Shown here: piece after piece, positions 7,828 to 10,800 of the stretch
Numbering within the stretch: position 1 is the stretch's first letter
Layout of the letters: each line of letters begins with the position of its first letter
Source of the DNA: Rhynchopus sp. YZ270_cl-10
Taxonomy: Eukaryota
Reading direction: 5' to 3'
Assembly (NCBI GenBank): GCA_964035575.1
Contig: OZ037843.1
Span: forward strand, 1 to 64,000
DNA: 64,000 nt
Program-made: the position numbers and the translations under genes
The notes under the pieces: model-generated
What the model saw: only the letters and a program-made list of their open reading frames with translations
What the model was told of the DNA's origin: nothing
The model's database searches: none

Positions 7828-10800
7828 ATGAGGAGGAAGGCCCTTTTGGGGGCGTTGTGGGTGGTGCTGCATGTCTGCATCAGCAGCAGCAGCAGGAGCT
7901 ACACCAGCAGCAACAACAAGAGCAGCAACAGCAGCAACAGCAGCAACAGCAGCAACAGCAGCAACAGCAGCAACAGCAGCAACAGCAGCAACAGCAGCAA
8001 CAGCAGCAACAGCAGCAACAGCAGCAACAGCAGCAACAGCAGCAACAGCAGCAACAGCAGCAACAGCAGCAACAGCAGCAACAGCAGCAACAGCAGCAAC
8101 AGCAGCAACAGCAGCAACAGCAGCAACAGCAGCAACAGCAGCAGCAGCAACAGCAGCAACAAAAGCAGCAACAGCAGCAGCAGCAGCAACAGCAGCAACA
8201 ACATATGCTACACCAGCTGCAACTGCAGCAGCAGCAACAGCAGCAACAAGAGCAGCAGCAACAACAGCAGCAGCAACAGCAGCAACAGGAGCAACAACTT
8301 AAGCTGCATCAACAGCAGTAGCAGGAGCCCCCTTCCCCCCCTTTTTTACCCCAAAAAGAGGCCTCTTGAGCCCAACAACCCAAGCAGCTGCAGCTTTGAT
8401 AGCAGCAACAAAAACGGGTGTGGAGGCAACAAAGCAAAGAACTGTTGTCATAACAACCCACACCCCCCTTCCCCCCATGATATCCCCAAAAAGAGGCAAT
8501 GTATGCCCAACCACATCAGTGGCTGCAACTGTGATAGCAGCAAAAACGAAATCTTCGGAGTCCTGGGTGGGGTCCCAGTATCACCCCTGGTGTGCAGCAG
8601 CAGCAGTTCCAAAGGCCTTTACAGCAGCAGTTCCAACAGCAGGCTCTACAGCTTTTTCACCAGCAGTTCCAAAGGCTTCTGCAGCAGCGGTTCCAACAGC
8701 AGGTCCAACAGCAGTTCCAACAGCAGGCACAACAGCAGTTTAAACAGCAGTTCCAACGGCTTCTGCAGCAGCAGTTCCACGAGCGTTTCCAAAAGCAGTT
8801 CCAGCAGCAGTTCCAACAGCAGGCACAACAGCAGTTTCAACTGCAGTTCCAAAGACTTCTGCAGCAGCAGCTCCAACGGCAGGTCCATCAGCAGTTCCAA
8901 CAGCAGGCTCAACAACAGCAGTTTCAACAGCAAGGACTTCTGCGGCAGCAGCTCTAACGGCAGGTCCAACAGCAGTTCCAACAGTAGGCTTAACAGCAGT
9001 TTCAACAGCAGTTCCACAGACTTCTGCAGCAGCGGTTCCAACAGCGTCTCCAAAAGCAGTTCCAGCAGCAGTTCCAACAGCAGGCACAACAGCAGTTTCA
9101 ACTGCAGTTCCAAAGACTTCTGCAGCAGCAGTTCCAACAGCAGGTCCAACAGCAGCACCAACATCAACAGCAGACGCAGCAACAACATCAGCGACAACAA
9201 CCTAGGGGGTGGTGAGCGAGGTATGCTGGTGTTCGGGGTCAGCCTTGCGGGGCGAGAAGGACAGAGTGGCTGTGTGATGATGCGGGTGTGGCAAAAGGGG
9301 TGTGTACAGATAGAGTTTTGGTTCGACTGGTGGTGCAACCTCTGGGAGGTCTTCACCTCCTTGCGTCAGCCTGACCCCTGCTGGGTAGCCGAGGCACCTG
9401 AGTGGGGAGTGTTTGTGTCGTTCGCGGTCCTGGATCTGTGGAAGGACAGACGCGCCCCTACCCTCAGTCATCTCATTTTGTGGCTGGTGGGCAGGAGGAC
9501 CAGGAGGACGCGACGAGGACACCGGTCCTTGAACTGGACCAAGTCACAGGCGGGCAGGCTCCGTCGGCGCAAGGCGCCCTGCAATCGTCCGCCCTCCCCG
9601 GCAGCGCACCCAGTTTTCCGCAGGATCAGGGTCGCCGATGCGTTGAGAGGTGCTTTGCAGTGTGTGGCCATCTGGGTTCTGGTTTTTGTGGGGTCTGAGC
9701 TTGGGAGGTCAGCGCCACATGCTTTGGGTTGTGCGCTGTTTCGGGACGCGGAGGTGCTGGGGGTGGGTCTGCTGCGGGGACTGTGCCGCGCACGCAGGGG
9801 GTGGCGGTGGCTGGAAGGGGCGAGCGAGCGAGTGCACCGATGGACCGGAGGGATCCGAGTGGCTGCCAGCTTGGTGAGAGCCAGTGTGATGGGGGTGGGT
9901 CAGTTGTCGGTGCGTGCAGCCGAGTGGGTGTGGGTTGCATGGTCCGCAGGTGGTTGTTTGGCGGGTTTTGTGGCACTGGTCGGCGTCGCGCGCCCACTTG
10001 GCTGGGTTCTTCTCTTGGAGGTGCGCCGTGTGGCAGCACGCAGGTGGACTCGTAGGATCGGGATGGCATTTGGCATGCTGGCGGTGTCCCTACTGGTCTT
10101 GCTGTCGTTGTTGTGGCGAGCGGTGACGCCCTGGGACCTGCGCCCTGCTGATCCGGAGCACCCGGTAAGCTTGTCCCCGTTTGCGTTGACCGGTGGGTGC
10201 GCAAACGTGAACGCTCCTGCGTATACAGAGCAGGCGGTGTCTGTGGACGCGACTCTGGCGAAGTTTGGAGCTAAACGCATCCCCAACGTGTCTACTAATG
10301 ATTGTGGTTATGTGGCACTACACCTCTGGGACCACGACACGCAGCCGGACGTGAGGGCAATGCGCAAGCAGCTGTATGACACAGCAGTGGAGGTGTCGAA
10401 CCGCCTGGTGCAGGTGCTGGGGTCGCAGGAGGCCATGACGGAGTTTGCCAATGGTGTGACCGGCGAGGCCCACCTCAACCACTTGGGGCTTCAGCTCACC
10501 GCGACAGCATCCCGCATCAACATCGTGGTGGTGCAGGCGTCGGAAGAGAACCCCCTCGTGCGCATCACCCCTGGTAGCAAAAGAGTCGCCAAGTCGTACG
10601 CGGAGAGCTTCCAAGCGAAACTTCCCACGGTCGTCATCGCTCTCTGTGACTCTCACTTTGAGGCAGTGGAGCTTGTCCCGGAGGTGGGGAAGACCAAGGA
10701 GGGGATGGCAGAGAAGATGAGGAAGGAGGCTCGGCAGGCAGTGCTGGACACAGCGCATTTGGATGGCATCATCCCCACCAACACCACCACCACCGCCCCC

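Follow-up and report, generated by a model that had tools for sequence, protein, structure and literature searches.

A conserved LxGG motif ahead of a predicted OTU domain in CRE/SLACS-like retrotransposons of diplonemids, a candidate site of self-cleavage

Ancient retrotransposons that lack long terminal repeats (non-LTR elements) and have just one open reading frame (ORF) have been described as making one multifunctional protein. Elements of the CRE clade (CRE1/CRE2, SLACS, and CZAR; MoTeR, Cnl1, and FoTeR) encode zinc fingers, a reverse transcriptase (RT), and a restriction-like endonuclease (REL) in that ORF and carry a poly(A) tail, a target-site duplication (TSD), and repeat regions, according to the accessible text of two papers (PMC12278014; PMC12857005). 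The word "protease" has no match in either of them. We report here on element A, a non-LTR retrotransposon copy in a 64,000-nucleotide stretch of DNA (the window) from the diplonemid Rhynchopus sp. YZ270_cl-10 (assembly GCA_964035575.1, contig OZ037843.1, positions 1 to 64,000; Table 1). By its architecture, its REL motif, and the names that depositors gave to its relatives, it is classed as a single-ORF, CRE/SLACS-like element. Element A resembles the CRE clade in all of the features named above; the RT and a C-terminal CCHC-REL are present in the single ORF, and the published REL pattern (PMC12857005) fits after its spacers are widened, the Cys-His spacer being longer in A. Unlike the CRE clade, it has a 790-aa leader, a conserved LxGG motif, and OTU-like domains, of which there are two in A and three in a second element of the window, element B. 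SLACS, CZAR, and CRE1 are found in spliced-leader (SL) RNA genes, whereas copy A lies within another repeat, and an Rfam scan of the window was empty (a diplonemid SL gene may be unmodelled), as was a tRNA scan.

Protease domains have also been reported from other mobile elements. OTU and Ulp1 domains are known in Ginger, Helitron, and Mutator, and existing proposals for the purpose of transposon OTU, Ulp1, and Josephin domains, as given in the accessible part of one paper, refer to the ubiquitin of the host and to DNA repair (PMC2836005). NeSL and Utopia-1_TSP have a ubiquitin/SUMO-type cysteine protease (Ulp1) N-terminal of the RT (PMC4640811), and the same placement has been described for the Josephin protease of Dualen/RandI and for the N-terminal OTU of a Symbiodinium ORF2p (PMC13405545). 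These elements differ from element A in protease family or in clade, and in the accessible parts of both papers neither a conserved candidate cleavage site nor a hydrophobic leader is described for them. Among RNA viruses, PLP2 of equine arteritis virus and PRO of turnip yellow mosaic virus (TYMV) are OTU-fold polyprotein processors (PMC3968130), and marafivirus PRO acts in cis to cleave junctions of the form LxG[G/A] (PMC8348309). The initial annotation of this DNA had cited coronavirus PLpro; a closer viral precedent is found in tymo-, marafi-, and arteriviruses, whose PRO/PLP2 have the OTU fold that is predicted for element A and cleave at ubiquitin-tail-like LxG[G/A] sites (PMC8348309; PMC3968130). 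In those RNA-virus replicases the cut falls downstream of the protease, whereas the candidate site of element A lies upstream of the protease, in a retrotransposon. The 2A/StopGo sequences known in elements with an apurinic-type endonuclease (APE), such as L1Tc, Ingi, CR1, L2, and Crack, are also N-terminal devices in a single ORF and have been proposed to part ORF1-like functions from the RT (PMC3708506; PMC3894237). They act by ribosome skipping and were reported for APE-type elements, whereas the diplonemid clade has LxGG with an OTU domain, and the 2A-like motifs found here are in REL-type relatives. The accessible text of the Diplonema papillatum genome paper merely lists SLACS-type RTs (PMC10161547). 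A literature search, incomplete and made without Repbase or supplements, found no description, in the text available, of a conserved cleavage motif beside a transposon protease. Protease domains in mobile elements are already known; what is new is a conserved protease-plus-site module in a CRE-like element.

From sequence comparison, we propose that OTU1, the first OTU-like domain of element A, would cut the polyprotein after the GG of this motif and release an OTU-zinc finger-RT-REL core, a reading to which we give a probability of roughly 0.55. The 101 proteins compared include 46 that reach the catalytic Cys of OTU1; four of these are too short upstream, which leaves 42 that were scored. 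An [LM]xGG motif is present 32-38 residues ahead of the Cys in 41 of them. Twelve related families, with OTU identities of 22-68%, were also compared, and the motif was found at this spacing in nine, displaced in one, and absent in two. The sites of the nine families are LTGG|C, LVGG|C, LYGG|C, LRGG|N, LSGG|C, MSGG|C, MRGG|C, MQGG|D, and MRGG|A. The conservation of LxGG, noted at first in A and B, thus extends well past two families. In the displaced case, P0105 of D. papillatum, P-x-x-L-x-G-G (LAGG|A) is found 126 aa upstream of the Cys with an inserted zinc finger between; LxGG thus behaves like a linear motif rather than a component of the fold. Leu or Met at P4 and Pro at P7 or P8 are kept with the GG in all nine families covering these positions, the displaced one included. 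P1' is Cys in 6 of the 10 motif-bearing families; the remaining four have Asn, Asp, or Ala there. Of 15 control OTUs, six of them C-terminal OTUs of these elements and nine unrelated to them, none shows GG with this spacing. Between A and B, only 9 of 41 fourfold-degenerate third positions of the GG and OTU region are identical; these positions are saturated, so that conservation there is at the protein level. In a Rhynchopus humris transcriptome protein, the leader, MRGG|C, and the OTU are in a single frame. A pattern scan of metagenome contigs gave 104 matches, none of them confirmed. Cys, Asn, and Asp are residues of arginylation-type N-degrons, and P1' is one of these three in 8 of the 10 motif-bearing families; as a loose lead, the freed RT would be short-lived if they act in this way.

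The OTU-like domain that the initial annotation had proposed was supported by structure prediction. The AlphaFold model of element A OTU1 has a predicted local distance difference test (pLDDT) score of 87.6 and a predicted template modelling (pTM) score of 0.87. A Foldseek search of PDB with this model returned OTU domains in all of the 12 best rows (best E 2.6e-5), and comparison with OTUD1 gave a VIA Z of 15.4 and a root-mean-square deviation of 2.2 with 143 residues. The fold is closest to cellular OTUD1/OTUD3, and the model also matches OTU domains among viral models. Cys826, His943, and the GG are invariant in all nine aligned sequences. By sequence, A's own domain stayed below the gathering score of Pfam PF02338, which gave no match for positions 10186-10740, and a PDB search did not pick out OTU1, which is recognised by fold alone; the homolog P0004 matches Pfam OTU with an E of 8e-4. 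The predicted model supports the placement of element A OTU1 in the OTU cysteine protease fold. The ORF, YPKKRPL, WVAEAPEW, LTGG, the Cys and His, and the LVGG of element B were likewise all found where they had first been placed.

The closest named relatives of element A are the R. humris protein and proteins of D. papillatum that carry the annotation "SLACS 132 kDa protein". An RT tree (FastTree, midpoint root) kept 100 of 117 sequences; 17, including P0205, P0216, and P0160, were dropped for short coverage. All 12 rows with GG and OTU fell into one clade (support 0.93) together with three rows without this region. The tree held no trypanosomatid reference, and the grouping is with D. papillatum proteins that depositors named SLACS. 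The leaders of 116 RT relatives, mostly N-terminally short gene calls, were surveyed for other devices. A 2A-type (D/C)VExNPG motif is present in 3 of the 116 and GEAx[NH]PGP in 4; the carriers, all REL-type, are P0011 (four copies), P0014, and P0131, and P0106, P0109, P0160, and P0192. The 2A label reflects similarity to a motif, DVExNPGP, in the accessible text of PMC3708506, and GEAxNPGP was not found in two 2A papers (PMC12338488; PMC12846837); by analogy, the GEAx[NH]PGP motifs may have 2A activity. In P0155, a ubiquitin-like domain (aa 251-329) ending LAGG is supported in the leader of a REL-type retrotransposon. A possible second one, ending RLRGG, in P0115 (aa 134-213) is a lead only (Atlas 0.87-0.90), with no support from PDB or phmmer. 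Such 2A-like motifs and the ubiquitin fusion may be alternative ways to part leader from core. The leader of D. papillatum P0216 (KAJ9446222.1) contains an AlkB-like 2-oxoglutarate-Fe(II) domain (aa 262-352), followed by transmembrane (TM) segments, two GG motifs, a zinc finger, and an OTU. Among the other RT relatives, P0137 has an N-terminal OTU (Pfam E 1e-9) and no leader, and the N-terminus of P0132 looks Ulp1-like by eye only.

In the mechanism proposed for element A, OTU1 would cut after LTGG, at Gly790|Cys791, probably in cis, and the OTU-zinc finger-RT-REL-tail portion would be freed from a basic, hydrophobic leader. Like an ORF1 equivalent, the leader may bind RNA, membrane, or both, and its release may let the core reach the nucleus. 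Such autoproteolysis is plausible for a protein of this layout, with comparative support from the 2A-type motifs and ubiquitin fusion of the relatives. A broader version, which we hold only tentatively and would sooner doubt than accept, is that one diplonemid lineage of REL-type long interspersed nuclear elements (LINEs) might make a polyprotein in the style of viruses, with a leader that is anchored in membrane, binds RNA, includes AlkB in D. papillatum, and is cut off in cis by the element's OTU at a ubiquitin-mimic site; sister lineages would use 2A skipping or a captured ubiquitin. If this is true, a non-LTR retrotransposon would depend for its maturation on a protease that it encodes itself, which would suggest a role for transposon-borne deubiquitinase (DUB) and Ulp1 domains. 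If membrane targeting is true, LINE replication would be linked to membranes as in RNA viruses. The devices of the sister lineages point to a general requirement for the RT core to come free of the leader. Because a candidate substrate site is conserved beside the protease, the question is directly testable with one construct, and D. papillatum, the diplonemid model species, carries a version.

Several observations weigh against self-cleavage by OTU1. Among the 42 scored proteins, P0061 is the sole one without [LM]xGG, and its upstream sequence is unrelated. P0205 and P0213 keep the Cys and His and have no [LM]xGG within 200 aa. The elements with GG and OTU are in one clade, so that the nine families represent one origin and not nine independent events. 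The OTU1 domains of A and B are without the Trp-Gly loop that is typical of OTUs and that P0004 has. A longer model of 507 aa gives pLDDT <50 near the GG, at residues 316-324 and 328-330. The leaders of P0073, P0081, and P0017 are without a TM-like segment. OTU2 of element A could be the cutter in place of OTU1. In addition, the nairovirus OTU takes no part in autoproteolysis, according to the accessible text of PMC3968130, and an OTU within a polyprotein therefore need not cut that polyprotein.

The best surviving alternative, which we consider unlikely, is that the GG is cut by another enzyme, either a host DUB or a C-terminal OTU acting in trans, and that OTU1 mainly deubiquitinates proteins of the element or the host. 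Candidates for such an enzyme exist within the elements, namely the second OTU-like domain of A and the third of B, both of them with Cys/His. In P0155, where the ubiquitin fold ends in LAGG, no OTU was detected, and this points to cleavage by the host in the lineage of P0155; the distance of 126 aa between motif and Cys in D. papillatum also fits an enzyme other than OTU1. Host DUBs generally require the ubiquitin body, however, and no ubiquitin fold is seen in the sequence ahead of LTGG in A or B. The spacing of 32-38 aa to OTU1, kept in nine families, speaks for OTU1 itself, and even a viral OTU has been reported to use LRGG alone poorly as a substrate (PMC8348309, accessible text).

It is similarly improbable that the GG is a flexible turn capping the first helix of an ordinary transposon-borne DUB, as in Ginger or Helitron, with the RT core made from a downstream start or still attached. 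In support of this, host ubiquitin or DNA repair has been put forward as the target of transposon OTU/Ulp1 domains (PMC2836005), the motif is absent from two families, and gene callers place the start of several relatives at or past the motif. Against a turn speak the Leu/Met and Pro kept with the GG in every family that covers them, the controls without GG at this spacing, and the synonymous bias in the leader.

The conserved motif and spacing, together with a pLDDT of 83 for the GG segment in the short OTU1 model, would also be consistent with LxGG packing on the domain as an uncut pseudo-substrate that lies in the OTU groove and keeps the deubiquitinase off or regulated, the polyprotein staying intact. 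We doubt this, as a hydrophobic leader still attached would hamper delivery of the intact protein to nuclear DNA, relatives have skipping or cleavage devices in the leader, and the displaced D. papillatum motif speaks against fixed packing. An N-S acyl shift of the Hedgehog/intein type at the Gly|Cys bond, with the OTU active site uninvolved, fits the P1' Cys of six families but is highly improbable and was rejected as a general mechanism, since 4 of the 10 families have Asn, Asp, or Ala at P1' and no HINT fold is among the matches listed.

As DNA, the leader blocks common to A and B show 87-95% identity, their third positions are unsaturated (matches 23/30, 13/14, 6/6, and 3/3), and the leader of P0002 is a mosaic of A-type and B-type pieces. 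Leader identity and mosaic indicate a recently exchanged module, and the agreement of A and B there is not independent evidence. Judged by the alignments, the blocks are a recently shared module or under DNA-level constraint, not a case of deep protein conservation. What had been described as seen in two diverged families therefore holds for the GG and OTU, and not for the leader blocks. Variants of the leader at 9207-10185 were taken from contigs of four runs (best 40 of 97), and 13 of the 21 listed are synonymous against 26% expected (p 5e-4). On sequence grounds, the W/R-hydrophobic part of the leader is coding. In the Ser/Asn tract, 9 of 40 variants are synonymous against 17% expected (p 0.24), with no visible amino-acid selection. 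Its frame is stop-free in A and B, the other frames carry stops (4/11 and 2/21), and Markov simulations left any frame open in 1-19 of 500, A and B not being independent. In-frame Ser/Asn tracts are also found in the distant P0068 and in D. papillatum P0216. The YPKKRP block, initially taken as part of a conserved YPKKRPLxPNN island, was rejected as a selected protein motif (1 synonymous versus 9 amino-acid differences). Coding of the leader in antisense or in the Gln frame was also rejected, as those frames have many stops.

Membrane targeting of the leader is a separate and weaker claim than cleavage, and we place it slightly below even odds. By hydropathy, TM-like segments are present in the leaders of A, B, P0002, P0068, P0103, P0205, and P0216, and an Arg-rich stretch is found in all 10 OTU-linked leaders compared. 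The h-region of the N-terminus is short (KD11 2.3 in A and 3.3 in B). Leader residues 466-790 gave no usable Atlas match, and their model has pLDDT mostly <50 and no fold. A strong polypyrimidine tract is present at 7781-7832, and the first AG after it, at 7831, is within the first two codons; this AG may be a trans-splice site, and SL addition there would remove ATG 7828. An alternative in-frame start, ATG 9223, is common to A and B. The signal-peptide or membrane-like leader of the initial annotation is thus weakly supported, in view of the short h-region, the three leaders that have no TM-like segment, and the AG after ATG 7828.

Element B shares the plan of element A, with LVGG at 27192-27181, the OTU1 Cys at 27072, an RT, and a REL. 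It is frameshifted in this copy and has one ORF in P0003. Its OTU2 is without the catalytic Cys, and an additional OTU3 has Cys/His; the OTU-like domains after the REL lie at roughly 22210-21770 and close to aa 2143. Pfam OTU matches the third OTU of B (E 0.0012), which is 32% identical to OTU2 of element A. A relationship between OTU1 and OTU2 was undetected by profile comparison (probability 0.4%). The architecture first drawn for these polyproteins holds with the addition of the second OTU-like domain after the REL, which had been missed. In element A, a long tail lies downstream of OTU2, and the C-terminus of the ORF reads into the A-rich tail of this copy; the database copy P0001 differs.

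Table 1. Positions of the features of elements A and B within the window
Feature	Position	Strand	Remarks
Element A, non-LTR retrotransposon copy	7435..16855	+	11-bp TSD 7424-7434 / 16856-16866; A-rich tail at end
5' tandem repeat, 18 bp x 11.3	7436..7638	+	
Element A single ORF, 3021 aa, start MRRKALLG	7828..16893	+	
MRRK and short hydrophobic stretch, putative signal-peptide-like	7828..7881	+	A/B homology starts at this ATG
Ser/Asn(Cys)-rich low-complexity tract, CAG/CAA repeats	7882..9207	+	YPKKRPL at 8347
Trp-rich block and Arg-rich tract	9223..9570	+	In-frame ATG 9223; WVAEAPEW at 9382; ~88% DNA identity to B
Hydrophobic TM-like segments, about aa 602-623, 703-732, 744-762	9631..10113	+	SLLWRAVTPWDLRP at 10105
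P-x-x-L-T-G-G|C candidate cleavage site	10177..10200	+	LTGG 10186-10197
OTU1, predicted OTU fold	10216..10674	+	Cys826 (10303), His943 (10654)
Zinc-finger-like Cys/His motifs	10843..11055	+	By sequence
Reverse transcriptase	11908..12627	+	YLDDG at 12376; Pfam RVT_1, E 2.6e-15
CCHC and RHN..E..RPGD..D restriction-like endonuclease (REL)	13342..13596	+	
OTU2, second OTU-like domain after REL	14260..14730	+	Cys 14320, His 14674; no GG ahead
Fragment of another A copy, 99.4% identical	5528..6734	-	LTGG site present; continues at 17240-17764
Element B coding region	19559..29529	-	ORFs 29529-22612 and 22666-19559

The window is a nest of non-LTR retrotransposons. The fragment of another A copy is broken within OTU1 at a GGTTTGCG array. 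An element of ~1.1 kb (6735-7434 and 16856-17240) sits within an A copy and is itself split by element A. It has its own 5' tandem repeat, a poly(A), and an 11-bp TSD, there is no long ORF, and a related copy is present at 30676-31279; it is likely a non-autonomous partner. Arrays of (GGTTTGCG)n are found at 1-5527 (691 copies, joined to the broken A copy) and at 31280-31349 (nine copies immediately 3' of a poly(A) tail). They are G-rich on the + strand, an orientation unlike that of a left-end telomere if the start of the window is the contig end, and may be a satellite or a target repeat. A cathepsin B-like gene without introns (Pfam Peptidase_C1, E 1e-56) is present in two identical copies, at 32845-33837 and 42712-43704 on the - strand. 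A tandem 10-kb duplication, also on the - strand (44610-52628 and 54643-62661), carries a 2672-aa DUF3638/DUF3645 gene in each unit.

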